Below, one piece after another: positions 4,141 through 63,756 of a stretch of DNA of 64,000 nt (the stretch's first letter is position 1; each line of letters opens with the position of its first letter). The position numbers were made by a program, and so were the translations under genes. Origin of the DNA: Eledone cirrhosa (taxonomy: Eukaryota); NCBI GenBank assembly GCA_964016885.1, contig OZ024741.1, positions 295,554,001 through 295,618,000 on the forward strand. The letters are read 5' to 3'. Below the pieces are notes generated by a model that was not told where the DNA came from, ran no database searches, and worked only from the letters and a program-made list of their open reading frames with translations.

Positions 4141-4795
4141 ATATAAGTATGTATATATACGTACATACATATAAGTATACAGATGCACAGTAGTATGTAT
4201 ATATATACATACATGCACATATATATATATGTACGTATGGATTTACCAAACATTTATTATAATGCTCGGTGTGTTTGTAAACAAACATCCCGAATTAAGC
4301 AGTACAGTGTCTAGCAACCATCATTGCTCATTTGTTCAACACTGACAAAGGAACGATGTACTAGTTTCAAGCTTATTAGCTATCGTCAGCACCGTATACC
4401 TTTCTGCCAGATGATTGAATGTCTGAAAGTATATACTTTCCTTATGCATATTAATGGCTGAGCAGCCTAATTTGCATATCGAGTGAGTTAATCGGCCGGG
4501 TGCACCGAAAACGATAAACGGAAAAAATGAAACGAAATTTCATTTCTCACTCTTAGTACGGCTGTTACTTAAATATAAGTATGTATATATATGTACATAC
4601 ATATACGTATACAGACGTACAGTAGTATGTATATATATACATACATGCACACATATATATATGTATGTATGGATTTAGCGTATTTATATGTATATGTCTG
4701 TATACATATATGTATGTACGTATATATACATACTTATATTTAAGTAACAACCGTACTAAGACTGAGAAATGAAATTTCGTTTCATTTTTTCCATT

Positions 4796-5998: not shown

Positions 5999-7787
5999 TA
6001 CATACATACATACATACATACATACATACATACATACATACATACTTACATACTTACTGAACCACAAAAAAAGCAAAACTTCAACTCATGGGAAAATAAT
6101 GCTGTTATATTTGGTGTATCAACTGGCTAAAATCAGATTTGCCTGCATCAATGGTCGACATTGTTTTTAATCAATAGAATATCTGGAGAAAGTTTTTTTG
6201 TGATGTTTATCTTTTCAGCTGAAATAGCAGCTTATCATGGGTCTTTTTTAGTTTTGAAACTTTGGTTAAATATAGGAAAAAATCTAAAACTAAAACTAGA
6301 ACTAAAAGACACCAGTGTGTAGTTAGTGTGCGATGTTTGATGGTAGTGAAACATAGTTGGCGAATGAATGTGTAGAATTACAGGAGTTTGTGGTTGCTTG
6401 AAGGAAATGAGGTGTGTATGCTCTGTTAGATGTGTAATGTTGCTAATGTTAGTATGTAGAGCTGGCATCTGGGTATTTAGTGTCCCCTTTTCTCAATTAT
6501 TCACCCCGTTCACCCAAATAAAATAATTTCAACCTTGTTTGGTAAGTTGACAAACCTAGATTTTGGCACTGCATACTTTGACCACACTAAGAAAATTACA
6601 AAGCTAGAATTTTCCACTACACAGTCCACATTCATCCATAACAAATTATGTGACAGGCCATATCCCCATACAGATGTTTTCTGATTTATTTATTGATCAC
6701 AGGAGATTATTGTACATTTCTATAGAACTGGGATTCTTTAAAGTTCAGGAACCCACATCTCTGATGTCTGAGCTCTAGTTGTCCTTATTGGTGGTGGTGG
6801 TGGTAGTAGTAATAGTAGTAGCAGCAACAGCCTTCTAGTGTACATAAATGATGGTGCAGAAAGGAGAAGAGAAGAAGGCTGAGTATATAATAAGAAGAAT
6901 CAAAAGTTTGGCAATTGAATGTGGAGAACTGTGAAGTTGTTGAGACTAGAAAGAAATTATGTGAGATTAATCTGTTAGATGTGTAATGTTAAAGTAGAAT
7001 AGAGTTCAAATGAGTTGAAAGAAAGACTGAATATAAGAGAAAGTAGATGGTTTGAGGTTTTATTCTTTACTGTCTAACCCATGCAAGCGTGGAAAAATGG
7101 ACGTTAAACAGTGATGATGATGATGATGATGATGTTGTGTGAGGGAAGGAAGGGTACTAACCATGACCTTTTACAGGGTCTTTAATGCTGGTAGGAGATG
7201 GCAAAGGGGAAGGCATCCCCAAACTGGAGGCCTGGCTTGAATACCTGCAAAAAAGGTGGACTCTATTAAAGGTACTCAAGGGCCAGGTGGTGGTTTTAAA
7301 CCAAGCAATAAAAGAGAGGAAACAGAGCTGTTACAAAAAACAGGGTAGTTATGAAAGATGAACATTGGGTGAAGAAGTACCAAATGACCCAAGTGGAAGG
7401 AAGCTGTGGGAGGGAAAAAACTGATGAAACCTGATCTCAGAATGATGAAGCTCATGAAAGAGATGATAAGGGACTCTAACAAGTGGTGATAGGCTGGGAT
7501 GGAAAAGATACATTCAACTCATGTGAACATGAAAAGATGGACATTAAAATTATGTGTGTGTGTGAGTGAGTGTGTATACATTAACAGTTACTTTAATAAG
7601 TGTGTGTGTAAATATATATAGCCTTCGTGTGATTGCTCCAAGACGTGTTGACAGAAGGACTCTTGAAATCTAAATGGATTTCAGCTGCTAAATGGCAGAA
7701 TATGTATGTATATATTTGTAGGATACATGTATAGATATATATATATATGTATGTGTGTGTATGTATATTAATGTGTGTATGTGTATT

Positions 7788-7847
<60 letters not shown>

Positions 7848-15012: not shown

Positions 15013-18000
15013 CTACAGTGAAGCAAAGATGAGTACAGGTAGCCAGAGCAAGGTCACTAGAGACCCCTGCACAACGACAACAAAGACATGAAAATGACCA
15101 GAGGAGAGCTGCTGCACACAGGGCCAATGAGTCACAAGAGGCAAGGGAAAAATGGTTTGAACAATTACATCAATAAAATGCAATCTGCTGGAGCCAATAG
15201 TCAAATAAGGAAAGAGAAAAATGTTTAAAGGATGCAAGACAAAGACAAGCTACCAAAGTTACCAATGAGACAATAGGTCAGCGAGAGATTAGTCAAAGAA
15301 AAAACCAGGAGCAAACAGTTGCTGCAAAATTTCGCCAATCCTCAGAGGAAAGACGTGCCTTGATCAAGATAGGCTGAATACGTTTGACAAAAGAGTTGCA
15401 CCTTTCAAGGGGACTTGGAAAAGATCAGCTTTCAACTATGATCCAAAATATGATTATTCTACAGAGAAATTGATTGATATTGGAGCAATGTCAAAAGAGT
15501 GCAATTTTTGTAAAGGAAAGAAATGGGAAAGAGGATTGCCACATGCCCACATTTTGATTTGGTTACAAGAAAAACTTCAGCCAAATGATATTGATTTATT
15601 TATTGCCTGATCCACAACAAAATTCTTTGCTGCATGAAATTGTCAAGTCCCAGATGATTCATGGGCCCTGTGGTTCAATTAATCCATCCTCCCCATGCAT
15701 GAGGGATAATAAGTGTACCAATAATTACCCGTGTTTCTTTGTACAAGAAATCCAAACTGGAGAAGGTGGCTACCGCCTTTACAGGAGAAGAAAACCTGGG
15801 CAAAAACAAATGAGAAATGGTCAAGAATTCATCATTGACAATCGGTGAGTTGTACCCTCTTGTCCACTTCTTACAAAAACTTTGAAAGTCCCTATCAATG
15901 TTGAATTCTGCCACTCTGTTAAGTCTATTAAGTATGTTTGCAAATACATAAACAAAGGTTTAGAGTGTATGTTGCAACATACACTCTTATGCAGAATGGC
16001 AGTTAGCAGATAAATAAAAATGACAAAGTTGCACAGTATAAGAGAGGAAGGCTTTTGGGTGCATCTTCAATTTTCCCATTCATGAGAGGCACCCAGCCAT
16101 CATTCATCTGAGTGTCCATGTAGAGAATGGCCAAGTGGGTATCTTTAGAAAGCAAACAGCCTTGCAACAAGCACTTTCTTCAAAAGAAACTACCCTTACT
16201 GCCTTTTTTGAGTTGTGTCAAGAAGATGAAGATGCAAGAAAACTTCTTTACCAAGAATTACCCAAGTATTACACCTGGAGAAACAATAAATGGCACAAGA
16301 GGAAACGTGGGGCTAACACTCTTGCAAGAGTTTACAGTGCCACCCAAGCCAAGCAGAATGCTCTTACTTACGGCTCCTTTTGCATGAAGTACATGGTCCC
16401 AAATCATTCCAAGATTTGGGGAGGGTAAATGATCATGTGTGTGAAATTTATAGGGAAGCATGCTATTAACAAGGTTTTTTAGAAAATCATGAGCATTGGG
16501 ACCTTGCATTGACTGAAACATTAGTGTCAGATTCTCCAAGGAAACTCTGTAACCTTTTTGCAATTATGCAGAGCATGTGTCAACTTGACAGTCCACTACA
16601 GCTTTGGATGAAATATTGTGAGGACATGGCTGAGAACTTAAAGTATGCAGTTCAACAGGCAAACCCAGATATCAATATTCAGTTCTCTGAAACATTTTTT
16701 AACCAAGCACTGATTGGAATTGAGGATCAAGTTTTGGCTGTGGGAGGCAAACATTCGCAAGAGTCTGGATCTGGACTGCCAAAAACAAACCGTCAAGTTA
16801 GTGTGTTAACTTCAAGAGACATAGCAAGAGAGACAAATTATAACATCACAGAATTGGCTGCATTTGTGAACGAACATGAACCTAAACTTCTTCCAGAACA
16901 ACGTTGTGCATATGATAAAATTATTTCATCAGTCAGAGAAAAAAGTGGAGGAATTTTCTCTCTTGATGCTCCTGGTGGCACTGGTAAAACATTTCTAACA
17001 ACATCGCTTCTCTCCAAGGTAAGGCAACAAAAAAGAATTGCAGAAGCAAAGGCTCAGGTTTAGCAAAAGTGTTGTGCCAATGCCACCTGATCATTTGGGA
17101 TGAATGCACCATGTCACATAGAGGTGCAATGGAAGCTCTTGCAGGTCATAAGGGGCAACAATAAATCTATGGGAGTAGTTACATTAATTTTATCAGGAGA
17201 CTTCAGAGACATATTACCTGTCATTCCGAGAGGAACAGGGGCTGATGAAATAAAAGTCTTCGTACCTATGGAATAAAGTACAGAAATTCTCCTTCAATAC
17301 TAACATGCGAGCTTTATTACAGGGGGACCAATGTGCAGAACAGTTTTCAACCCAGCTCCTCCAATTAGGAAATGGTAAAGTACCAATTGATGGGAGTGGT
17401 GATATCAATTTGGCTCATATTGCTATCATCGTGAACTCCTCAGCTGAATTGAATAACAAGTATTTCAAGACTTAATAATTATAATTCACATAAATGGTTG
17501 TGTGAAAGGGCAATTCTTGCTAAAAAAAATGAGACAGTAACAAGGATTAACCATGAGCTAATGAATAAGATTCCAACAGTCATTAAGGAGTACAAATCAG
17601 TTGATTCAGTCCTTGATGAAAATCAATCTGTCCACTACCCAACAGAGTTCCTTAATTCTCTTGAGCCACTTGGAACTCCTCCACATAAACTTTTCTGAAG
17701 GAAGGAGTCCCAATAATGCTTCTAAGAAATTTAGATCCTCCTAAATTATGCAATGGGACAAGGTTGATTGTGAAGACATTATCATCTAATGTGATAGAAG
17801 CTACCATCATCAATGGATGTGCTTCTGGGGAAGAGGTTTTCATTCCAAGAATTTCAATCAAACCAACAGACATGCCATTTGAGTTCAAACGAACACAATT
17901 CCCAGTGTGACTTTGCTTCACATTGTCTATTAATAAAGCTCATGGTCAAACTTTGAAATCTACTGGCTTGCACTTAACTGAGCCTTGCTTTTCTCATGGT

Positions 18001-20768: not shown

Positions 20769-23700
20769 CAGAGAAGTGCAGACTTCAGAGAGGTGCAGAC
20801 TTCAGAGAGGTGCAGACCACAGAAATGTGCAGACTTCAGAGAGGTGCAGACTTCAGAGAGGTGCAGACCACAGAAATGTGCAGACTTCAGAGAGGTGCAG
20901 ACCCAGATATGTGCAGACCTCACAGAGGTGCATACTTCAGAAAGGTGCATACTTCAACAAAGTGCAGACCACAGAAAAATGCAGACCTCAGAGAAATTAA
21001 ACTTCAGAGTGGTGCAGACCCCAAACTGATGCAGACCTCAGAGAAGTGCAGATATCAGAGAGGTGCAGGCCACAGAGAAGTACAGGCCACAGAGAGGTAC
21101 AGGCCAGAGAGAGGTGCAGGCCACAGAGATGTACAGGCCACAGAGAGGTACAGGCCAGAGAGAGGTGCAGGACACAGAGAGGTACAGGCCAGAGATAGGT
21201 ACAGGCCACAGAGATGTACAGGCCACAGAGAGGTACAGGCCAGAGAAATGTACAGGCCACAGAGAGGTACAGGCCACAGAGAGGTACAGGCCAGAGAGAG
21301 GTGCAGGCCACAGAGAGGTGCAGGCCACAGAGAGGTACAGGCCACAGAGAGGTACAGGCCAGAGAGAGGTACATGCCACAGAGAGGTACAGGCCACAGAG
21401 AGGTACAGGCCAGAGAGAGGTGCAGGCCACAGAGAGGTGCAGGCCACAGAGAGGTACAGGCCACAGAGAGGTACAGGCCAGAGAGATGTACAGGCCACAG
21501 AGAGGTACAGGCCACAGGGAGGTACAGGCAACAGAGATGTACATGCCACAGAGATGTACAGGCCACAGAGAGGTACAGGCCAGAGAGAGGTGCAGGCCAC
21601 AGAGAGGTGCAGGCCACAGAGAGGTACAGGCCACAGAGAGGTACAGGCCAGAGAGATGTACAGGCCACAAGGATGTGCAGGCCACAGAGATGTGCAGGCC
21701 ACAGAGAGGTGCAGGCCACAGAGAGGTACAGGCCACAGAGAGGTACAGGCCAGAGAGAGGTACAGGCCAGAGAGATGTATAGGCCACAGAGATGTGCAGG
21801 CCACAGAGATGTGCAGGCCACAGAGAGGTGCAGGCCACAGAGAGGTACAGGCCACAGAGAGGTACAGGCCACAGAGATGTGCAGGCCACAGAGAGGTGCA
21901 GGCCACAGAGAGGTACAGGCCACAGAGAGGTACAGGCCAGAGAGAGGTACAGGCCAGAGAGATGTATAGGCCACAGAGATGTGCAGGCCACAGAGATGTG
22001 CAGGCCACAGAGAGGTACAGGCCACAGAGAGGTACAGGCCAGAGAGAGGTGCAGGCCACAGAGATGTGCAGGCCACAGAGATGTGCAGGCCACAGAGAGG
22101 TACAGGCCAAAGAGAGGTACAGGCCACAGAGAGGTACAGGCCAGAGAGATGTACAGGCCACAGAGAGGTACAGGCCAGAGAGAGGTGCAGGCCAGAGAGA
22201 GGTACAGGCCAGAGAGATGTACAGGCCACAGAGAGGTACAGGCCAGAGAGAGGTACAGGCCAAAGAGAGGTACAGGCCACAGAGAGGTACAGGCCAGAGA
22301 GAGGTGCAGGCCACAGAGAGGTACAGGCCAGAGAGAGGTGCAGGCCAGAGAGAGGTACAGGCCAGAGAGATGTACAGGCCACAGAGAGGTACAGGCCAGA
22401 GAGAGGTACAGGCCAAAGAGAGGTACAGGCCACAGAGAGGTACAGGCCAGAGAGAGGTGCAGGCCACAGAGAGGTACAGGCGAGAGAGAGGTACAGGCCA
22501 AAGAGAGGTACAGGCCACAGAGAGGTACAGGACAGAGAGAGGTGCAGGCCACAGAGAGGTGCAGGCCACAGAGAGGTACAGGCCAGAGAGAGGTACAGGC
22601 CAGAGAGATGTGCAGGCCAGAGAGATGTGCAGGCCACAGAGACGTGCAGGCCACAAAGATGTGCAGGCCAAAGAGAGGTACAGGCCAGAGAGAGGTGCAG
22701 GCCACAGAGAGGTACATGCCACAGAGAGGTACAGGCCACAGAGAGGTACAGGCCAGAGAGATGTGCAGGCCACAGAGATGTGTAGGCCACAGAGATGTGC
22801 AGGCCACAGAGATGTGCAGGCCACAGAGATGTACAGGCCACAGAGAGGTACATGCCACAGAGAGGTACAGGCCACAGAGAGGTACAGGCCAAAGAGAGGT
22901 ACAGGCCACAGAGAGGTACAGGCCACAGAGATGTACAGGCCACAGAGAGGTACAGGCCACAGAGATGTACAGGCCACAGAGAGGTACAGGCCACAGAGAG
23001 GTACAGGCCACAGAGAGGTACATGCCACAGAAAGGTACAGGCCACAGAGAGGTACAGGCCACAGAGAGGTACAGGCCACAGAGAGGTACATGCCACAGAG
23101 AGGTACAGGCCACAGAGAGGTACAGGCCACAGAGAGGTACAGGCCACAGAGAGGTACAGGCCACAGAGAGGTGGAGGCCACAGAGATGTGCAGGCCACAG
23201 AGAGGTACATGCCACAGAGAGGTGCAGGCCACAGAGAGGTGCAGGCCACAGAGAGGTACAGGCCAGAGAGAGGTGCAGGCCACAGAGATGTGCAGGCCAC
23301 AAAGAGGTGCAGGCCACAGAGAGGTACAGGCCACAGAGAGGTACAGGCCAGAGAGAGGTACAGGCCAGAGAGATGTACAGGCCACAGAGATGTGCAGGCC
23401 ACAGAGATGTGCAGGCCACAGAGAGGTGCAGGCCACAGAGAGGTACAGGCCACAGAGAGGTACAGGCCAGAGAGAGGTGCAGGCCACAGAGATGTGCAGG
23501 CCACAGAGATGTGCAGGCCACAGAGAGGTACAGGCCAAAGAGAGGTACAGGCCACAGAGAGGTACAGGCCAGAGAGATGTACAGGCCACAGAGAGGTACA
23601 GGCCAGAGAGAGGTGCAGGCCAGAGAGAGGTACAGGCCAGATAGATGTACAGGCCACAGAGAGGTACAGGCCAGAGAGAGGTACAGGCCAAAGAGAGGTA

Positions 23701-24970
23701 CAGGCCACAGAGAGGTACAGGCCAGAGAGAGGTGCAGGCCACAGAGAGGTACAGGCCAGAGAGAGGTACAGGCCAAAGAGAGGTACAGGCCACAGAGAGG
23801 TACAGGCCAGAGAGAGGTGCAGGCCACAGAGAGGTGCAGGCCACAGAGAGGTACAGGCCACAGAGAGGTACAGGCCAGAGAGATGTGCAGGCCACAGAGA
23901 TGTGCAGGCTACAGAGATGTGCAGGCCACAAAGATGTGCAGGCCACAGAGAGGTACAGGCCAAAGAGAGGTACAGGCCAGAGAGAGGTGCAGGCCACAGA
24001 GAGGTACATGCCACAGAGAGGTACAGGCCACAGAGAGGTACAGGCCAGAGAGATGTGCAGGCCACAGAGATGTGCAGGCCACAGAGATGTGCAGGCCACA
24101 GAGATGTGCAGGCCACAGAGATGTACAGGCCACAGAGAGGTACATGCCACAGAGAGGTACAGGCCACAGAGAGGTACAGGCCAAAGAGAGGTACAGGCCA
24201 CAGAGAGGTACAGGCCACAGAGATGTACAGGCCACAGAGAGGTGCAGGCCACAGAGAGGTGGAGGCCACAGAGATGTGCAGGCTACAGAGATGTACAGGC
24301 CACAGAGAGGTACAGGCCACAGAGAGGTACAGGCCACAGAGAGGTACATGCCACAGAAAGGTACAGGCCACAGAGAGGTACAGGCCACAGAGAGGTACAG
24401 GCCACCGAGAGGTACAGGCCACAGAGAGGTACAGGCCACAGAGAGGTACATGCCACAGAAAGGTACAGGCCACAGAGAGGTACAGGCCACAGAGAGGTAC
24501 AGGCCACAGAGAGGTACATGCCACAGAGAGGTACAGGCCACAGAGAGGTACAGGCCACAGAGAGGTACAGGCCACAGAGAGGTACAGGCCACAGAGAGGT
24601 GGAGGCCACAGAGATGTGCAGGCCACAGAGAGGTACATGCCACAGAGAGGTGCAGGCCACAGAGAGGTGCAGGCCACAGAGAGGTACAGGACACAGAGAT
24701 GTGCAGGCCACAGAGAGGTACATGCCACAGAGATGTGCAGGCCACAGAGAGGTGCAGGACATAGAGAGGTACAGGACACAGAGATGTGCAGGCCACAGAG
24801 AGGTACATGCCACAGAGAGGTGCAGGCCACAGAGAGGTACAGGCCAGAGAGAGGTACAGGCCACAGAGATGTGCAGGCCACAGAGAGGTGAAGGTTACAG
24901 AAAGGTTACATCAGAGAAATCAAACCTCAGAGAGGTGCAGACATCACAGAGGTGCAGATCTCAGAGAGAA
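20769..24970. repeat. 17-bp minisatellite array (AGGTACAGGCCACAGAG)n, about 4.2 kb
   Basis: Unit read directly; about 245 units estimated from length; stop-free unit explains giant ORFs in all six frames. Confidence 0.97.
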
Positions 24971-25604
24971 ATGATCAAACTATTGTAGAAATTTGTATGA
25001 TGAAATTAAATATAGAATAATTCCCTATAATCAATAAACAAATCACTAAACATTTTTGCCACAAAGCAACATTGTGGGAATATCAAAAGTGATGGAGATG
25101 GAAGGATGTTATGGTGGGTGTTACCACCTGTAGTTTGTTGTCATGGAATGTGAACTGTGCAGTAGAAACTACAGGCTAAATAATTTCCTTAGTGTAATCA
25201 GAGTAAAAAATATCAAAAATTAGCTTTGTCAGCTCACCAAACTGTAAGCTAAAAGAAATGACACATATTGTAGGGTTAGCCTAGGGTACCATATACCCAG
25301 GTGATGACACTGCAGGCTCTGATGGATGTGTAATAGTAATATATATGAATGGCAAAGCATAAATGAACTGAAAGAGTGACTGGGCATAAGAGGAGATTGC
25401 GTTGGCATGGACATATAATGGATATGAAGGATGACAGCTGTATAAAATGGTGCAGGGCGATCAAAGTTGATTGAAGCTATGGAATAGGAAGACCTAGGAA
25501 GATTTGGGATGAGGTGATAAAAACTGGCCTTGAACAATTCTTTGACTTTTATTGTTCTGAAATATAAATACACATAGTTCAAAAGGAATATATATATATA
25601 TATA

Positions 25605-31295: not shown

Positions 31296-31347
<52 letters not shown>

Positions 31348-31943
31348 AATGAAAAATGGTGTGCTGCGTTGTTGCGAATGTGATACATATGAAATAAAAA
31401 TAAAGCAAGAAACAGGACTGTCCATCATCAGTGATCTTCTGACTATCATCGGTATTTCTTCGTATTAAAGACCAGATACCTCAAGTCAGCACAAGTAATA
31501 ACTAAAATAAGTTATTGGGATAAAAAGAATTGGGTGGAGAAAGAGAGACATGTAAACAAACATAAATGGTAAGGCAACGTAAAGAGAGGAAAATGAGAAA
31601 ACAAGTCAGTGATACATGTGAACTTAAGTTCTAGAAAATCATTGATGAGAAGAAGAAGGGCGCGTCTGAACCCTGCGAAATGTGAGCGAGAAAAGGATTT
31701 CACACAGGTCAGATGGGAGGAAGTGAGAGAGGGGAGTAGCAGAGAGGGAGTGAGTGAAAGTGTGAGGAAGAGGCTGGCCAAGAGAGGGTGACCAGCAGAG
31801 GAGGTGAATGAAAGTAAGAGGTACAAGGAGAGAGAAAAAGAGAATAGCAGTAAGGTGATAGAAAAAGAGGGGTCACAGCGAGGGGCAAAAATAGAGGAAT
31901 GAAAAATGGCGTGCTGCATTGTTGCGAATGTGATACATATGAA

Positions 31944-32068: not shown

Positions 32069-32905
32069 ATATGGCAGACCGTTTTGCTGAACATTTGAGG
32101 AACATACGACTCGGTTTGGATACTCCTGTCGCCTGTCATTTCTGTTCTCCTGGTCATTCTTCCCTACATGTTTCAATCCTGGGTGTCCTTTTATATCATG
32201 GATCACATGCCTCGTGCACCAGGACTGAACAAAGTCTGATTCACCACCTTGGGTCCTATTCCCCTCTTGGACTTAACTCACCTCCCCAATTTCTGTAATA
32301 CCCCGTACGTTATCACACCCCTAGATTCCTATTGCTTTCTCTTGATCATTAACATCTTCTCTTACAACTAATACATACCGATTATATATGTTCACTCCAC
32401 TTTTCCCTTCACTGCTCTGTATACACTCATACACACCCTTATATTAACATACTTTTGCTCATAGCTTCATACTTACATGCACACACTCTCTTTTACTCAC
32501 ATATACACACACATTTCTTCTTAGCTTCGTACAGACGTATAATAACACACACACAAACACATGCTTACGCTCGTGCACAAGTATAGCTCTTTTTACAAAA
32601 TGTTTTTTTTTCCATTTCAGGTAGACACGCTCCATCATCCACTTTTCTAAAAAATAAATCATACACAAAACACCAGCACCAACAGTTTTGCAAGAGATGT
32701 CAACATGAATGGACCTGTTATTTTTATCTAAAGACATTTTTTCCAATTCCAACCCGCCCGTCCCCTCCATCTATCTTATTTCTCATTCTTTCTTCTGATG
32801 AAGGACTAGCGTCTGAAACGTTAAGACCCTCTTCCTGCTATTTCAAGCGTTAAACTAATATATTCCTTCCCTATACTGTACCGATTGTGTTGTTAATTCT
32901 GTTTA
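32069..32905 (+). mobile_element. Penelope-like element 3' fragment (Neptune-like GIY-YIG C-terminus plus pLTR)
   Basis: RFAEHLRNI...PVACHF...GHS...EQSLIHHLGSYSPLGLN, followed by a 3'UTR carrying an HHR. Confidence 0.8.
32791..32826 (+). ncRNA. Minimal hammerhead ribozyme (palindromic AACGTT stem III)
   Basis: tctt-CTGATGA-a ggac tagc gtct-GAAAC-GTT-aaga. Confidence 0.8.
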
Positions 32906-35704: not shown

Positions 35705-35806
35705 GGCTTCTACAGGACTAGAACTGTTTCATTCGAAAAAAAATCATCAGGAAAGCTCTGATGATTTCCTTCGAATGAAACAGTTCTATTCCTGTAGAAG
35801 CCATTT
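35701..35806. ncRNA. Back-to-back inverted pair of hammerhead motifs
   Basis: Minus 35706-35756 and plus 35755-35801, each CTGATGA...gaat-GAAACAG...CTGTA-gaagc. Confidence 0.75.
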
Positions 35807-39241: not shown

Positions 39242-39496
39242 TATATATATATATATATATGTAAATATGAGAATAAACATGGTGCGGAGTTGCAAATGGG
39301 TTACATATGAATAAAGTGGTCCTTCATCAGTGATCTTCCAACCATCATCGGTATTTCTTCGCTTTAAAGACCATATACCCCCGGTTGGTGCGAGCAACGG
39401 CTCAAGAAGGTAAGTTATTCCGGGGTGAATCAGAGGTAACCACAGTAAGTAAGGTACTCAATACATAGCAGAGTATAAAAGTTTTAATATAGATGA

Positions 39497-39545
39497 GATT
39501 CTACAGGACTAGAACTGTTTCATTCTTTAGAAATCATCAGGAATC
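39497..39545 (-). ncRNA. Type I hammerhead ribozyme
   Basis: Minus strand: gattc-CTGATGA-tttc taaa gaat-GAAAC-ag ttctagtc ct-GTA-gaatc. Confidence 0.85.
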
Positions 39546-40219: not shown

Positions 40220-41457
40220 ATAGCTGAATCTATGGTAGAACTAGAGAATAAATTCCAAACCTGGAAGCAGGGACTAGAGAGAAAGGGCCTCAAAGTCAAC
40301 ATGACAAAGACTAAGGTCCTTATAAGTAGACGAGAAAACAGAACCCAGATCCCCTCAGGGAAATGGCCTTGCTCAGTATGTAGGAAAGGTGTAGGTAGGA
40401 ACTCCATTCTTTGCCCCAAATGCAAACAATGGGTACACAAGAGATGTAGCGGGATCTCAGGAAGCTTAATTAAGAATGTAGGATTCACATGCAGCAGCTG
40501 TGCTGAAACAGCAAGCAAACAGCCACAGGAAACAAGTACCACCAATCTCTGGGAGGGCCCTGTAGAAACAGTAGACAGCTTCTGCTACCTAGGTGACCGA
40601 ATTAGCAACGGAGGTGGGTGCTCAGAAAGTACAATAACTAGGGTAAGAACGGGATGGAAGAAGTTTAGGGAACTACTACCACTGCTAGCTGCAAAAGGCT
40701 TCTCCCTCAGAATGAAAGGCAGACTGTATGATGCGTGTATCCGAACAGCGATGTTGCATGGTAGTGAGACCTGGGCGCTGAAGGTGGAAGACTTACGTAG
40801 ATTAGAGAGAAACGAAGCCTGCATGCTCCGATGGATGTGTAACAGTAATATACGTGAACGACAAAGCATAAATGAATTGAGAGAGAGACTGAGCATAAGA
40901 GGAATCAAATGCTGCGTGCAGGAGAGGCGGTTACGCTGGTATGGACATGTGATGCGTATGAAGGATGACAGCTGCATAAAAAGGTGCAGAGCACTAGAAG
41001 TTGATGGAAACCGCGGAGTGGGGAGACCCAAGATGACTTGGGATGAGGTGATAAGAGCCGACCTTACCCAACTACACCTCTCAAAGTCAATGACACACGA
41101 CCGTGACTTCTGGCGTCACGCAGTAATACAGGGTACCCGACCTCCCATGGGTACATGCTGAAGCATATAAACAATATGCCCCCCCCCCCACCGCAAGGTG
41201 GTCGTGGAGGTGCCACGGCAAAAAAGCACCCAGCCCACACTGTAAAGTGGACGTGTAGGCGCCACGAAAAAGCACCCAGCACTCACTGTAAATGAGGTTG
41301 GTGTTAGGAAGGGCATCCAGCTGTAGAAATCAAGCCAGATCAGTTCCTGTATGAGCAAGGCATGGTCAGCCGACCAGACACTGCCCACAACAGGACAACC
41401 CGTCTAACCCATGCTAGCGTGGAAGAACGGACGTAAAACGGTGATGATGATGATGAT
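40220..41457 (+). mobile_element. Young RTE-type LINE, 5'-truncated, copy 1
   Basis: Open frame to 41161 with Cys-rich PHD-like insert (CSVC..CPKC..HKRC..CSSC), FCYLG and RLRWYGHV; (GAT)n tail. Confidence 0.93.
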
Positions 41458-45909: not shown

Positions 45910-46550
45910 GGCTGATTCAAGGAGCGTTTCCTGAACCACCAGTCTACCTTCAGATACCCGGACAGACGTTCATCCACGAAACTCGCGAGCCATGTATGGT
46001 CCCTCAAGGACTCAAGTATAGGCTACTCCATTCAATGGAAAGCCATCACTAAGTCCAAGCCATACGCAAGGGGAAATCCGATGTGTGGCTTATGTATCGA
46101 CGAACGAATAACTATCCTAAAGAGATTACGCAATAGTGATTGCCTAAACACGAGAAGTGAATTTTTCACACGGTGTCCACACGTCACCAAACATCTATTG
46201 CATAACTACAAGGCTCCGGACTGATTCTTTGTAATTTTATTTTTAATTTTATTTTAATTTTATTTTCAACCTAAAAACTTTCCGGACTTTCGCAGTTATC
46301 TCCCTTACACCTCTCGCACGCAGTCTAGTATTGCCTGTGTGAAATGACCAAGTTTCTGCGCATGCGCGTTCGTACGGTTGTCCTTCCTGTTCCTATAACC
46401 ATACACATCCCGAGCTGAAGATCCGCTAAGGTGAAACAATTGTTCTCGGTATGGTGAACTAACTGTTGTTTAACCACTTCTATCTAACTCGTCCCATGGA
46501 CTGAGTGCTCTACCACTACGGACATTACCTTCCAGTGTTCCACCACTATA
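45910..46550 (+). mobile_element. Naiad-like Penelope element 3' fragment (GIY-YIG C-terminus plus pLTR)
   Basis: [14 protein letters not shown]...[11 protein letters not shown]...IQWK...CGLCIDE...LNTRSEFFTRCPH, stop at about 46224; not in the ORF track. Confidence 0.85.
46410..46449 (+). ncRNA. Minimal hammerhead ribozyme (palindromic AACAATTGTT stem III)
   Basis: ccgag-CTGAAGA-tcc gctaa ggt-GAAAC-aatt-GTT-ctcgg; extendable by ccata/tatgg. Confidence 0.85.
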
Positions 46551-49618: not shown

Positions 49619-51129
49619 TCATCATCATCATCATCATCATCACCGTTTTACGTCCGTTCTTCCACGCTAGCATGGGTTAGACGGGTTGTCCTGTTGTGGG
49701 CAGTGTCTGGTCGGCTGACCATGCCTTGCTCATACAGGAACTGATCTGGCTTGATTTCTACAGCTGGATGCCCTTCCTAACACCAACCTCATTTACAGTG
49801 AGTGCTGGGTGCTTTTTCGTGGCGCCTACACGTCCACTTTACAGTGTGGGCTGGGTGCTTTTTTGCCGTGGCACCTCCACGACCACCTTGCGGTGGGGGG
49901 GGGGCATATTGTTTATATGCTTCAGCATGTACCCATGGGAGGTCGGGTACCCTGTATTACTGCGTGACGCCAGAAGTCACGGTCGTGTGTCATTGACTTT
50001 GAGAGGTGTAGTTGGGTAAGGTCGGCTTTTATCACCTCATCCCAAGTCATCTTGGGTCTCCCCACTCCGCGGTTTCCATCAACTTCTAGTGCTCTGCACC
50101 TTTTTATGCAGCTGTCATCCTTCATACGCATCACATGTCCATACCAGCGTAACCGCCTCTCCTGCACGCAGCATTTGATTCCTCTTATGCTCAGTCTCTC
50201 TCTCAATTCATTTATGCTTTGTCGTTCACGTATATTACTGTTACACATCCATCGGAGCATGCAGGCTTCGTTTCTCTCTAATCTACGTAAGTCTTCCACC
50301 TTCAGCGCCCAGGTCTCACTACCATGCAACATCGCTGTTCGGATACACGCATCATACAGTCTGCCTTTCATTCTGAGGGAGAAGCCTTTTGCAGCTAGCA
50401 GTGGTAGTAGTTCCCTAAACTTCTTCCATCCCGTTCTTACCCTAGTTATTGTACTTTCTGAGCACCCACCTCCGTTGCTAATTCGGTCACCTAGGTAGCA
50501 GAAGCTGTCTACTGTTTCTACAGGGCCCTCCCAGAGATTGGTGGTACTTGTTTCCTGTGGCTGTTTGCTTGCTGTTTCAGCACAGCTGCTGCATGTGAAT
50601 CCTACATTCTTAATTAAGCTTCCTGAGATCCCGCTACATCTCTTGTGTACCCATTGTTTGCATTTGGGGCAAAGAATGGAGTTCCTACCTACACCTTTCC
50701 TACATACTGAGCAAGGCCATTTCCCTGAGGGGATCTGGGTTCTGTTTTCTCGTCTACTTATAAGGACCTTAGTCTTTGTCATGTTGACTTTGAGGCCCTT
50801 TCTCTCTAGTCCCTGCTTCCAGGTTTGGAATTTATTCTCTAGTTCTACCATAGATTCAGCTATGAGTGCGAGGTCATCAGCATACAGGAGTTCCCATGGG
50901 CATCCGGTCTTAAACTCCTCCGTTATTGCCTGCAGGACTATGATGAACAGGAGAGGGCTAAGAACAGAGCCCTGGTGGACCCCAACCTGTACGCTAAATT
51001 CCTCGCTATACTCATTGCCAATCCTAACTTTGCTGACTGCTCCCCTATACATGGCTTGTACCGCTTTCACAAGCCATTCATCTACTCCTAGTTTTCTAAG
51101 AGCCCACCAGATTACTGCACGTGGAACTC
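49618..51129 (-). mobile_element. Young RTE-type LINE, 5'-truncated, copy 2 (longest)
   Basis: GVHQGSVLSPLLF, LLYADDLAL, PHD-like insert; near-identical to copy 1. Confidence 0.95.
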
Positions 51130-57438: not shown

Positions 57439-58638
57439 AAGCAGGGACTAGAGAGAAAGGGCCTCAAAGTCAACATGACAAAGACTAAGGTCCTTATAAG
57501 TAGACGAGAAAACAGAACCCAGATCCCCTCAGGGAAATGGCCTTGCTCAGTATGTAGGAAAGGTGTAGGTAGGAACTCCATTCTTTGCCCCAAATGCAAA
57601 CAATGGGTACACAAGAGATGTAGCGGGATCTCAGGAAGCTTAATTAAGAATGTAGGATTCACATGCAGCAGCTGTGCTGAAACAGCAAGCAAACAGCCAC
57701 AGGAAACAAGTACCACCAATCTCTGGGAGGGCCCTGTAGAAACAGTAGACAGCTTCTGCTACCTAGGTGACCGAATTAGCAACGGAGGTGGGTGCTCAGA
57801 AAGTACAATAACTAGGGTAAGAACGGGATGGAAGAAGTTTAGGGAACTACTACCACTGCTAGCTGCAAAAGGCTTCTCCCTCAGAATGAAAGGCAGACTG
57901 TATGATGCGTGTATCCGAACAGCGATGTTGCATGGTAGTGAGACCTGGGCGCTGAAGGTGGAAGACTTACGTAGATTAGAGAGAAACGAAGCCTGCATGC
58001 TCCGATGGATGTGTAACAGTAATATACGTGAACGACAAAGCATAAAGGAATTGAGAGAGAGACTGAGCATAAGAGGAATCAAATGCTGCGTGCAGGAGAG
58101 GCGGTTACGCTGGTATGGACATGTGATGCGTATGAAGGATGACAGCTGCATAAAAAGGTGCAGAGCACTAGAAGTTGATGGAAACCGCGGAGTGGGGAGA
58201 CCCAAGATGACTTGGGATGAGGTGATAAAAGCCGACCTTACCCAACTACACCTCTCAAAGTCAATGACACACGACCGTGACTTCTGGCGTCACGCAGTAA
58301 TACAGGGTACCCGACCTCCCATGGGTACATGCTGAAGCATATAAACGATATGCCCCCCCCCCCCACCGCAAGGTGGTCGTGGAGGTGCCACGGCAAAAAA
58401 GCACCCAGCCCACACTGTAAAGTGGACGTGTAGGCGCCACGAAAAAGCACCCAGCACTCACTGTAAATGAGGTTGGTGTTAGGAAGGGCATCCAGCTGTA
58501 GAAATCAAGCCAGATCAGTTCCTGTATGAGTAAGGCATGGTCAGCCGACCAGACACTGCCCACAACAGGACAACCCGTCTAACCCATGCTAGCGTGGAAG
58601 AACGGACGTAAAACGGTGATGATGATGATGATGATGAT
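57439..58638 (+). mobile_element. Young RTE-type LINE, 5'-truncated, copy 3
   Basis: ORF 57475-58335 differs from copy 2 by one residue; (GAT)n tail. Confidence 0.93.
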
Positions 58639-58714: not shown

Positions 58715-58763
58715 GATTCCTGATGATTTCTAAAGAATGAAACAGTTCTAGTCCTGTAGAATC
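58715..58763 (+). ncRNA. Type I hammerhead ribozyme
   Basis: Identical to the reverse complement of 39497-39545. Confidence 0.85.
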
Positions 58764-58954: not shown

Positions 58955-59005
58955 TTTTATTATACATATTTCAGAGGTACAACAGTACGTCCTCATCAGA
59001 CAAAA
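58955..59005 (-). ncRNA. Minimal hammerhead ribozyme within an inverted-repeat cassette
   Basis: Minus strand: ttttgt-CTGATGA-ggacgtac tgtt gtacctct-GAAA-tatgtATA-ataaaa; 31-bp inverted repeats at 58905-58935 / 59025-59055. Confidence 0.7.
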
Positions 59006-59996: not shown

Positions 59997-60655
59997 AAGA
60001 CAGGAAGACGATACTTAGGTTCGTGGTAACGTTCCCTTGCAAAGAACGGGAAAAAACGAATATAATACGTCATTATTTGGAGCGGTGAAAAACAATTACA
60101 CGCAAAGACAGAACCACGTTTATGGTATAAAAGAAGTCGTAGACTAATATTCTCTAAGGTGGTTCATAGAGACGTTCTCTGGCAATGAACGAAAAAAACG
60201 AAGATAATACGTCATATGTGGAGCGTGGAGAACAATTGCACGTAAACACAAAACCACGTAAATGGTATCATGATCATCATCATTCTTCGACTACTGTCGA
60301 GATGATGGATCTCACTCTCATGCCCCAGAATTCCCTGTCCCCCATATAGTGTGGTTCCCTGAAATGGTATAACTGAAGTCGTAGACTAAAATTCTAACTA
60401 GGAAACCGAATGATTCTCGGCTTCAGAGTTAAGAATAAAGTAAATAAAATACAGAGGTAATTGAAATTAAATAAATGCATACTCGCGTCCATACACGTAC
60501 ATACACAAGCATAGGCGAAAACACTCGCCATAGGTATACAAATACACGCACATATAAATGTGTGTGTGTGCGTGTATACAAATAATTAAATAAACGTATA
60601 TAAATAAATAAATACGTATATAACAAACGCACACACATACCTACATGTAAATACC
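59997..60655 (-). repeat. Inverted partial pLTR of the adjacent PLE
   Basis: Reverse complement of about 62982-63540, interrupted by a 93-bp insertion. Confidence 0.9.
60269..60361 (-). mobile_element. Extremely 5'-truncated (GAT)n-tailed LINE insertion with 9-bp TSD
   Basis: aaatggtat at 60260-60268 and 60362-60370; single copy at the empty site near 63268. Confidence 0.8.
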
Positions 60656-63600
60656 CGTACCAAGCAGGAAAACATACCTAAAACTCCTAATACAGAAAGC
60701 AGACGCGTTCATTAAAAGGTTACGTTGGCGTGCCTTTTATTTCGATAATCAGCGAAAAGCAGACAACAAACAGGATAAATTTGGGTTTAAAACTTATAAT
60801 AACCATCCGTGTAATCCAGCATTGTTACCCTTCGAAAATGATCTCTTGGAACTCATACGGAGTATCAAATTTCGGAATAGGAGCAATTCCTTCCAGCAGG
60901 ACCTGAAGAATAAAATTCGTTCTATTAAGGATTCTAATGCCGTGCACGTCCATTCCGACAAAACTGGCAACCTATATCAAGTGGAGCGCAGTACTTACCA
61001 TCAACTATTACATAATGCTGTAACTAAGGATTACCGTAAAACTAATCGGTGCGTCATTAATGAAATCAACGATGCTGGGTTTAAAATCACCTCTGATCTC
61101 AACATGCAGGACCGGACCGAACCTCTGGACCCTATTTCTTCCCACTTTACCCACTTTACCCAATTTTCTGAACAACCCCTCTATTCGGCTTATTAACCCT
61201 ACGAAGTCCGATTTAGGTAGACTTAGTAAAAGGATTCTTGATAGAATTATACCTGAAATTAGAAGTTTGGCCCCTCTTGCACTGTGGAACAATTCTTTCG
61301 CGGTGATTGATTGGTTCAACGGCATATGCAACAAGGAACATTACCACTTCTCCTTAGAGCTATCAATTTCGCTAAATCACTCACAGTGATTAAGGATTTC
61401 GAAATTGATGTCATCCTCAATGCTCGTAAGTCGGTGATTAATTTCGACGACTCTATTTGGATTAAAAAATCTAATAGTACCCCCATTCGACGTGAGTATG
61501 GGCGCCAGCGATTCTGCGGAGGTTACTGATCTTATCGGCCTTTTCCTTCTTTTCTCTATCAAGGACGAATTCCCCAACGTGGGCGGTGGTTTGTACCGTT
61601 TGACCATGACTAAGTGCGGCCCACGTGCTTGCGACAGGTTCAGAAAAGAACTCACAGCCTTCTTTAAAGGCTTCAACCTCTCTATACAGGTTGAGGCCAA
61701 TCTCTCGGTCGTTAATTGCCTCGACGTTACCCTCAATTTATCGAATGGCTTGTATTACCCGTATAGAAAGCCGAATGATACGCTTAATTACATAAGTAAG
61801 CATTCTAACCATCCTGCCAGCATAACCAGGAACCTGGTAAGAAACGTTTCTTTGAGGCTTTCCCGTCTATCTACTAACGAGCATATTTTCAACGACCATT
61901 CCACATATTACAATGAAGCTCTTGCTCAGAGTGGATTTGTCGATAAGGTAGCATATACAGAGTACGAGAATAGACCTAGAAGAAATAGATCCCGACGCAT
62001 TATATGGTATAACCCACCATATATGGAGGTGGCCACACCATTAGCTAAGATCTTTCTATCCCTTATTACGAAGCATTTTCCCCCTACACATAAATATAGT
62101 AACATTTTTAATAGAAATACTATTAAAATTTCTTACTCTACGACTCCTAACCTTGCACATAACATCACCGCTTCAAACTTAGCTAAACTACCTAGCCGTA
62201 GGAACACGTGCAACCCTGTAGTTAGTACTAACTGTAATTGTAGGAATCGGGTTGATTGCCCCCTATCCGGGAAATGCCTCTCTAGTAACATTGTCTACAA
62301 ATGTAAGGTTGAAACACCCACGTCCCGTAGGGCCTACATAGTGTTAACCGCCAATAGATTCAAGCAGCGTCTTTAGATGCATATCCATTCTTTTCGTTAC
62401 CCTCTAAGAAGGAATATGACGTCACTTTCAGCTTATATCTGGAGTCTAAAAGACAACCACACCCAATATAAGTTACACTGGGAGATCCTAGCTAGGGCTA
62501 GATCGTATAACGGAAATAAAAGATCATGTCACCTCTGCGCCGCTGAGGCCCTGGAAATACTCTACACCACAGACCACATCTTAAACAAAAAATCTGAGGC
62601 AATTTCGGCTTGTAAACATAAATTGCACAAAACTTTCCTGTATTACAGCCCCACATTATACCCTAACGGATAGTACGATCTATACGCGGATATTTTACGT
62701 CTTGATGTGGTAGCTAAGTATATGTTATCTTTATACCATTACTTATTTGCATAGGTAAGTATATATTACCTGTATGTTTTGTGAAGGTACGTATACTTTC
62801 TCGTACGTATATTTGATTGTATATGTTATGGCGTATATTTTATATATTCTGGTACATATGCTTTTGGTTATGTGTATACTTGAGTTTTGCGTCTGTGTGA
62901 GTATGCGGGTTGAGTACGTATGTAGGGTGTGTGTATATGTGTACTTCGTGTTTTGGTTGACGTACGTCTCCGAACATATGTGTATTTACATGTAGGTATG
63001 TGTGTGCGCTTGTTATATACGTATTTATTTAATTATATACGTTTATTTAATTATTTGTATACACGCACACACACACATTTATATGTGCGTGTATTTGTAT
63101 ACCTATGGCGAGTGTTTTCGCCTATGCTTGTGTATGTACGTGTATGGATGCGTGTATGCATATTTATTTAATTTCAATTACCTCTGTATTTTATTTACTT
63201 TATTCTTAACTCTGAAGCCGAGAATCATTCTGTTTCCTAGTTAGAATTTTAGTCTACGACTTCAGTTATACCATTTACGTGGTTTTGTGTTTGCGTGCAA
63301 TTGTTCTCCACGCTCCAGATATGACGTATTATCTTCGTTTTTTTTCGTTCATTGCCAGAGAACGTCTCTATGAACCACTTAATAGAATATTAGTCCACGA
63401 CTTCTTTTATACCATAAACGTGGTTTTGTCTTTGCTTGTAATTGTTTTTCACCGCTCTAAATAATGACGTATTATATTCGTTTTTTCCCGTTCTTTGCCA
63501 GGGAACGTTTCCACGAACCAGAGTATCGTCTTCCTGTCTTCCTCCGGTTGCAACGTTTTTTGAAATATTCACTTCTGCGTTCACAGATTGACTTTGTTAG

Positions 63601-63756
63601 TTTCAGAAGATCCCGTTAAGGGTGAAAGCAGCGATTCTTTGCTTAAACTTTAATCTGTTATTTTAATAAATATTTGCTCTACGGTTCTTATATATTTGAT
63701 ATATATTTATCCTTATCGAGCCCTCTTTGGATTTTCGTCTTCAAATTTATTATTAT

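Follow-up and report, generated by a model that had tools for sequence, protein, structure and literature searches.

A putative hammerhead ribozyme with a split core and S-G-C order in non-coding Penelope-type elements of Eledone cirrhosa

Non-coding elements in the genome of Eledone cirrhosa carry a motif that, judged from sequence comparison, is probably an active hammerhead ribozyme with a split core, which would cut after H17 and set the RNA 5' end of an element likely mobilised by Naiad-type Penelope-like retrotransposons. Two copies lie in the window, by which we mean the whole stretch of 64,000 nucleotides analysed here (assembly GCA_964016885.1, contig OZ024741.1, positions 295,554,001 to 295,618,000). 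A sequence-only reading of this DNA had reported an unclassified structured RNA at 31410..31495 with a second copy at 39315-39390, and both copies were found there; the position of the first stands, but its extent does not, the motif going about 25 nt beyond, to 31521, and covering 31420-31521 of the minus strand. The helix ggtat/atacc is retained in both copies, the outer helix does change from ctgact/agtcag to ccaacc/ggttgg between them, and CTGATGA is present on the minus strand. The proposal of a pseudoknotted, non-canonical ribozyme on that strand agrees with what is described below, a putative ribozyme with a full hammerhead core and crossing, covarying helices. It need not be called unclassified, as it can be classified as a hammerhead with S-G-C order. 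The statement that no properly placed GAAA...NUH half-core exists is contradicted by GAAA at 31455-31458 and by U16.1 and H17 at 31475-31476, on stem III and in another 5'-3' order; these were overlooked because they are placed before CUGAUGA and not after it.

Hammerhead numbering and core consensus follow established knowledge and PMC10085705. The parts of copy 1 are located in Table 1. Along the minus strand, its 5' part consists of the Pa 5' strand, the Pb hairpin, the 5' strands of stem II and P0, UGA, the stem III strand ending in U16.1, and C17. The middle is made up of the stem I 5' strand, UAA, the stem II 3' strand, GAA, and A15.1 with the opposite strand of stem III, and the 3' part of a 3-nt bulge, GAU, the 3' strands of P0 and stem I, CUGAUGA, one base and the Pa 3' strand. 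All helices close inside one monomer of 110 nt.

Table 1. Parts of the motif in copy 1, its carrier element and copy 2 (window positions)
Feature	Positions	Strand	Basis or remark
Non-coding Penelope-type element	31341..31943	-	one ~550-bp unit and a partial repeat, TA runs on both sides
Pa 5' strand	31518..31521	-	partner 31420-31423; one mismatch in copy 1; weakest helix, 85.7% of cells paired
Pb hairpin, 7 bp	31497..31516	-	alignment pair count
Stem II 5' strand	31491..31494	-	displaced upstream of the cleavage site; 95.3% paired, 3/4 pairs change on both sides
P0 5' strand	31484..31489	-	the outer helix of the sequence-only reading; equals linking helix 'I' between stems I and II of type SGC
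k-turn-type loop, non-bulged strand UGA	31481..31483	-	NGA in 112/139 parsed copies
Block S: stem III strand to U16.1, then C17	31475..31480	-	predicted cut between 31475 and 31474
Stem I 5' strand	31468..31474	-	95.6% paired, 5/6 pairs change on both sides
UAA linker and stem II 3' strand	31459..31467	-	UAA in 136/139 parsed copies
Block G: G12 A13 A14, A15.1, stem III strand	31451..31458	-	alignment pair count
3-nt bulge, GA-U of the k-turn-type loop, P0 3' strand	31439..31450	-	parsed copies, alignment
Stem I 3' strand, then CUGAUGA (C3-A9)	31425..31438	-	alignment
One variable nucleotide and Pa 3' strand	31420..31424	-	alignment
Copy 2, other subfamily	39257..39411	-	units about 67-70% alike

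Both window copies contain all of the hammerhead core letters, namely CUGAUGA, GAAA, A15.1-U16.1 and a non-G H17. C3 U4 G5 A6 N7 G8 A9 stands directly 3' of stem I, G12 A13 A14 lies between the stem II 3' strand and the A15.1-U16.1 pair, and the non-G H17 separates stems III and I; hammerhead stem I is formed by the strand 3' of the cleavage triplet and the 7 nt that immediately precede CUGAUGA. The departure concerns stem II, whose 5' strand does not follow A9 (within the 1-2 inserted nucleotides accepted at most) and whose covarying partner is located about 75 nt upstream. Pa comes after A9 instead, and a GGAC 3' of the core has its pairing partner some 100 nt upstream. A hammerhead has an R10.1-Y11.1 pair under A9-G12. 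In a subfamily with C11.1 (637 pattern matches) and in most of the Naiad tails read, a canonical G10.1-C11.1 pair is provided by the upstream strand; in the subfamilies found in the window, 11.1 is A or U and its putative 10.1 partner gives U-A, A-U and G-U, but also A-A and C-A. Candidate stem II partners downstream, UUGC/UUCGC runs 15-45 nt 3' of the core, were dropped by eye for the upstream strand.

The 3.0-Gb genome of E. cirrhosa contains thousands of copies of the motif. DNA searches from the two window copies gave 2,137 and 1,691 first-look candidates. A 34-nt pattern had 569 exact matches in the genome versus 0 in its control, and a looser core-spacing pattern, fixing GAAA, a GA 7 bases on and CTGAYGA 14 bases further, had 23,098 versus 185, a few of its matches being junctions of canonical hammerheads (L146, L214). 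From the fetched loci 277 distinct pattern matches were gathered; stems I and III could be parsed in 230 of them and five helices in 165; among the 80 listed of 120 chance matches of the pattern in viral contigs, none passed the same parser. The Rfam search at four loci returned no match at gathering score. Over the motif it gave three weak chance matches (E 0.89-5.9), one of them a C/D snoRNA, and over the whole window microsatellite and miRNA noise alone among the matches listed (150 of 278).

Pairing was evaluated in a MAFFT alignment of 123 rows, made up of 116 copies selected on sequence extension and nothing else, both window copies, and a further five that were added by hand once they had parsed. 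Over six helices with 32 pairs, 91.8% of 3,908 cells are paired in these 123 copies, a count made on the very copies from which the structure was derived, most of which were recruited with search patterns in which the core and the k-turn GA are preset; the controls reach 80.8% when shuffled and 27-46% when slid (at most 46.2%). Changes on both sides occur in 23 of the 32 pairs. Stems I, II, III and P0 are 94-98% paired, Pa and Pb are the weakest helices (85-86%), and the A15.1-U16.1 pair is found in 122 of the 123 rows. G-U cells number 115 versus 47 A-C cells, which gives a strand signal.

Because relatedness inflates pair counts, changes were mapped on a tree, where lineage branches are those leading to three or more copies and tips record decay after insertion. 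The compensatory changes first noticed between two copies extend to covariation over many genomic copies: pairing was kept in 48 of 68 changes on lineage branches (20 broken, 21 double changes) and in 51 of 193 at the tips (142 broken, 4 double changes), a contrast with a Fisher p of 2.7e-10. Lineage changes break Pa in 6 of 9 cases and Pb in 7 of 14, partly by register shifts, and stem III has zero double changes on lineage branches.

Conservation of the core was determined in 53 copies that were recruited by neither pattern nor query, using a profile with masked core columns. The 11 fixed core positions are 97.6% conserved in these unselected copies, versus 84.4% elsewhere, with G12 and A13 each at 94% and A14 at 100%. 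N7 is U in 46 copies, C in six and A in one, and H17 is A in 34, C in 15, U in three and G in one, hence non-G in 52 of 53. Among 139 parsed copies, H17 is A in 93, C in 34, U in 12 and never G. Under nested folding, the two window copies score no better than shuffles (z 0.13 and 0.10), and a stem I strand is paired with a stem II strand instead; such a weak score is expected since the helices cross, and it gives no support. Two intact copies from other subfamilies have nested-fold z values of -2.6 and -4.8. RNAalifold recovers P0 and stem III alone, because it cannot draw crossing helices.

P0 is joined to stem III by a loop of k-turn type, in which a 3-nt bulge and the pairs G1b-A1n and A2b-G2n stand between the two helices; the search patterns left no freedom at positions 1b and 2b. 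This is the TTGA/GATGAT that had been suspected to be k-turn-like, with NGA on the non-bulged strand (Table 1). The k-turn consensus is a 3-nt bulge with G-A/A-G pairs (PMC5061560), and the bulge followed by G-A and A-G is common to both, while 3b,3n varies; the U at 2n of Kt-23 is also seen in some subfamilies of the motif. Unlike a k-turn, one subfamily has plain Watson-Crick pairs next to a simple 3-nt bulge, and the coral and nematode Naiads are without the loop. In that subfamily, L161:1213-1328 (-) and its relatives, an 11-bp Pb and G10.1-C11.1 accompany the replacement, and it could serve as a naturally occurring control for what the kink does. According to Eckert et al. 2023 (PMC10085705), a direct connection of stem III and the linking helix is hard to square with the crystal structure; as modelled here, it is plausible that the kink answers this difficulty.

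Copy 1 had been described as a 550-bp partial tandem with TA flanks, and this is what we find, the repeat being at 31376 and 31926 with TA runs on either side. Copy 2 is 5'-truncated inside Pb, which leaves it without the Pa 5' strand and half of Pb; it has a private A-to-G change in the k-turn strand, its predicted cut lies between 39374 and 39373, and it adjoins a canonical type I hammerhead element at 39498-39544. Decayed or truncated insertions as they are, both window copies may be inactive themselves. Carrier units match the window at these two places and, for a single unit, over 37 nt at 7768-7804. Eight carrier units, 65-93% identical across alignable parts, have no long frame, the longest stop-free stretch per unit being 65-159 aa. 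Tandem copies are spaced 470-672 bp apart in 20 of 21 pairs, with 966 bp in the remaining one; copies are located in TA runs and frequently have inverted 5'-truncated partners. Partial tandems, 5' inversions, (TA)n insertion and lack of an ORF are combined as in a non-autonomous Naiad PLE, and the anatomy of tandems, TA runs and inversions is that of Penelope-like elements. The motif fills the place that the hammerhead has in a Penelope-type cassette, as had been remarked, but the window cassettes with canonical hammerheads are not its sequence siblings. Two units of 630-640 bp (L057+914 and L122+1500) contain an internal duplication of ~140 nt, about 70% alike. Short inverted duplications with breakpoints in or at the ribozyme motif are seen at L030, L078, L096, L151, L280 and L282; in two of these the breakpoint is no more than 1 nt from the predicted cut.

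The 5' ends of copies point to the same site. In a set of 188 copies anchored on sequence downstream of it, homology is lost in 36 within the interval from -15 to +9 around the predicted cut, and in 33 over the next 100 nt. For the 34 internal copies, which run on downstream and are therefore more than short 3' stubs, the respective numbers are 14 (in the same 25 nt) and six, and 14 of the 34 extend over 110 nt beyond the site. Immediately upstream of the site, the number of ends in 5-nt bins falls from 5-10 to 0-2. The p-values of 3e-9 and 2e-6 for this clustering are optimistic, because the interval was chosen after the histogram had been seen. Inversions or junctions are broken within 1 nt of the predicted cut at L096, L250 and L282. 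The clustering fits templates whose 5' end is the cut, the copies that read through stemming from RNA left uncut or joined again; stalling of the RT in structure could add to the pile-up and is a rival cause.

We propose an active site that would be hammerhead-like, with G12 and G8 as in other hammerheads and the cut after H17. In the three-dimensional fold, stem II would be completed by the upstream strand and flanked by the stacked helices Pa and Pb, the side arm of a four-way junction; the kink would allow P0 to bridge the distance between the end of stem III and those of stems I and II. Tandem or read-through transcripts would be cut to unit length and in part be re-joined or stay uncut, the latter being proposed because many copies read through the site. 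A Naiad RT/endonuclease would then copy the unit RNA into (TA)n. The RT of PLEs needs an internal RNA element and initiates internally (PMC11167929), and internal initiation would explain that 3' copies keep the whole ribozyme.

Naiads have (TA)n as target, and Craig et al. 2021 (PMC8557442) report no canonical hammerhead in them and an 'HHR_half_core', half cores 35-50 nt apart in eight Naiads including two cephalopods, for which they give no structure. The same paper describes partial tandems, inverted 5'-truncated copies and (TA)n targets as in the window elements; unlike Naiads, the latter are without ORF. For Naiad tails from File S5 of that paper, the surroundings of CUGANGA and GAAA words were inspected by eye. 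Of the 54 consensi most were viewed in part, several tails, including Naiad-1_Movir, Naiad-2_Skow and several contexts in file parts 16-19, are unparsed, and the parsed tails comprise no bivalve. Within this scope the split wiring, with unrelated stems, was recognised in nine consensus tails: Bfor (ctenophore), Amil, Aacu and Anas (corals), 2_Movir (box jelly), Obim and Ovul (octopus) and two unnamed ones (file parts 12 and 19); Naiad_Esco gave a partial parse. Both octopus tails in the file agree with our motif in the GAAA-N7-GA-N14-CUGAUGA spacing and in the loops of the k-turn and of Pb, and in its coral tails A9 runs straight into Pa and the upstream strand contributes G10.1. A further seven tails, from nematodes and spiders (parts 13-16: a Pristionchus element, 1-3_Nbra, probably Hcon, Hpol and Smim), read as type CSG, their block C being uninterrupted and their linking helix long. 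It is rather probable that all Naiads process their RNA by non-circularly permuted hammerheads. Those of nematodes and spiders would be CSG, while those from ctenophores to octopuses would have a seventh topology, outside the six-permutation scheme, with the core opened between A9 and G10.1 into a four-way junction; in cephalopods the k-turn would close the knot and may make cleavage dependent on a host protein of the L7Ae family.

No Naiad ORF adjoins any fetched copy in the genome of E. cirrhosa, so the mobilising partner is one that we infer. A Naiad-like core pattern had four genome matches, none with an ORF, and a DNA search from one of these matched a flanking repeat and nothing else. 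The window's own PLE ORF was rejected as the partner; it belongs to another family, with an RT, a C-terminal GIY-YIG and a type I-like hammerhead at 63600-63648. Pfam gave no match for three window ORFs. GIY-YIG remnants near L071, L105 and L145 were likewise rejected, being separate elements that are set off by TA runs or lie downstream.

The fold could be real and yet non-catalytic or weakly catalytic, a hammerhead-derived signal for binding or initiation of the RT/endonuclease with the k-turn as a protein site. The split of block C, the loss of G10.1-C11.1 from the largest subfamilies, the read-through of the site in many copies and the internal RNA element that the PLE RT requires (PMC11167929) all speak for it. 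We consider it unlikely, since the catalytic letters alone are fixed while N7, H17 (never G in lineages) and the stems vary, since they are fixed across the ctenophore, coral, box jelly and octopus Naiads as far as the parsed tails go, and since the 5' ends step down at the predicted cut. Improbable to a further degree is cleavage with another stem II, either by pairing of the nucleotide after A9 with 11.1, which would give a stem II of one pair and leave block C intact, or by a strand swap between tandem units, giving a plain SGC variant or a dimer. That nucleotide is often able to pair with 11.1 (U-A, A-U, G-U) and the units are in tandem; small PLE hammerheads reportedly cleave as dimers. 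The C11.1 subfamily and the coral Naiads argue for the upstream strand, with Pa straight after A9 and G10.1 taken from upstream, and so does the closure of every helix within the monomer.

The pairing put forward in the sequence-only reading, a tgat/atca hairpin with an aggacc/ggtcttt pseudoknot, would make the motif a non-hammerhead ribozyme of a new kind or a k-turn element. Copy 2 can form both pairings, but over the alignment they pair in 77% of cells with one double change, their covariation score is 0.205 versus 0.241 for a slide by one column, and 18 of 33 changes on lineage branches break them; their strands covary in stem I and Pa instead, and we regard this fold as very improbable. 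Least credible of all is that covariation merely seems present through common ancestry of a few master elements: the copies are related and were recruited through core patterns, and against this stand the contrast of lineages and tips, the failure of every listed control match to parse, and the same wiring with unrelated stems in other phyla, in the Naiad tails that were parsed. Hairpin, HDV-like, pistol and twister readings were dropped by eye against their consensus features, a substrate-like run for the hairpin ribozyme being present 3' of the core in one subfamily only. The split-core hammerhead is the reading we retain.

If it is true, non-circularly permuted hammerheads pass from anonymous environmental RNA to animal genomes in tens of thousands of copies, and a wiring is added that the published scheme of six orders rules out, with block C interrupted. 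It would also explain the seeming success of Naiads without a hammerhead, an open point in PMC8557442, provide a natural ribozyme containing a k-turn and possibly tuned by protein, and mean that a large class of animal ribozymes escapes standard descriptor and Rfam scans.

The window contains further repeats. Canonical-order type I hammerheads of Penelope type are located at 32791-32826, 46411-46448 and 58716-58762 on the plus strand and at 39498-39544, 35707-35754, 4355-4393 and 58957-59003 on the minus strand; several have a palindromic stem III and 35750/35758 is an inverted pair. Those at 4355-4393 and 58957-59003 have a weak stem II and may be due to chance, and 33194 (+) and 9281 (-) resemble decayed hammerhead copies. 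At 60651-62700 (+) lies a young, very high-copy Penelope-like element with RT and C-terminal GIY-YIG, which has stops here; the genome has 68,811 first-look candidates for it, and 132 scored copies show 93-97% protein identity and open frames of up to 822 aa. Pfam has no match for this element, and its type I hammerhead at 63600-63648 (+) has one core change in the window copy. Three 3' parts of a non-LTR retrotransposon (40220-41188, 49895-50863, 57439-58362), 100% identical within 18 kb and in both orientations, are a sign of very recent activity. Fragments at 16042-17063 (+) contain a Walker A-like GGTGKT and have what we take to be the look of a Helitron-type helicase, and a 17-bp satellite occupies 20904-24990 with more than 200 copies.

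Hammerheads with additional helices were reportedly described in Weinberg 2015, as cited in PMC13725137. The literature search, with Weinberg 2015, Lunse 2017 and the Eckert supplements outside its coverage, found no paper on split wiring, on Naiad ribozymes, on permuted hammerheads in animal genomes or on the structure of the Naiad half-core; these works could narrow the novelty of the extra helices. Among known systems, the animal non-LTR retrozymes or non-autonomous PLE derivatives (bioRxiv 10.64898/2026.07.22.740005) likewise consist of short non-coding units in tandem, a few hundred bases long, each with a single hammerhead. The published ones carry type I hammerheads and were found by type I descriptors alone, and the tandem units of our carrier are without a type I hammerhead. 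Types I, II and III have a circular C-G-S order and a nested three-way junction, and the motif has S-G-C order and crossing helices. Type CSG, known from two metagenome sequences (PMC10085705), has the same cyclic order S-G-C as the window motif; it is opened between stem III and the linking helix, the window motif at A9/10.1.

The closest relative is type SGC (HRIMA-1 and variants, PMC10085705), with which the motif has in common the S-G-C order, the linker of ~3 nt between stems I and II, the linking helix and the full core; for both SGC and CSG, in vitro cleavage is documented there. Eckert et al. 2023 report SGC in metatranscriptomes only, with none in genomes of known organisms, whereas the window motif belongs to a high-copy animal retroelement. 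Their block rule, drawn from all alignments known to them, makes block C uninterruptible, and small insertions elsewhere in the hammerhead core lower activity (PMC3088659); both points speak against an active motif. Type SGC has an uninterrupted block C and its 5' end before block S; here block C is split, the segment upstream of block S contains the 5' strand of stem II together with one half of the linking helix, the ends of the RNA exit through the extra helix Pa beside the hairpin Pb, and the strands between stem III and the linking helix are both short and form the k-turn-type loop. The motif would work in the manner of SGC but is not counted among its members.
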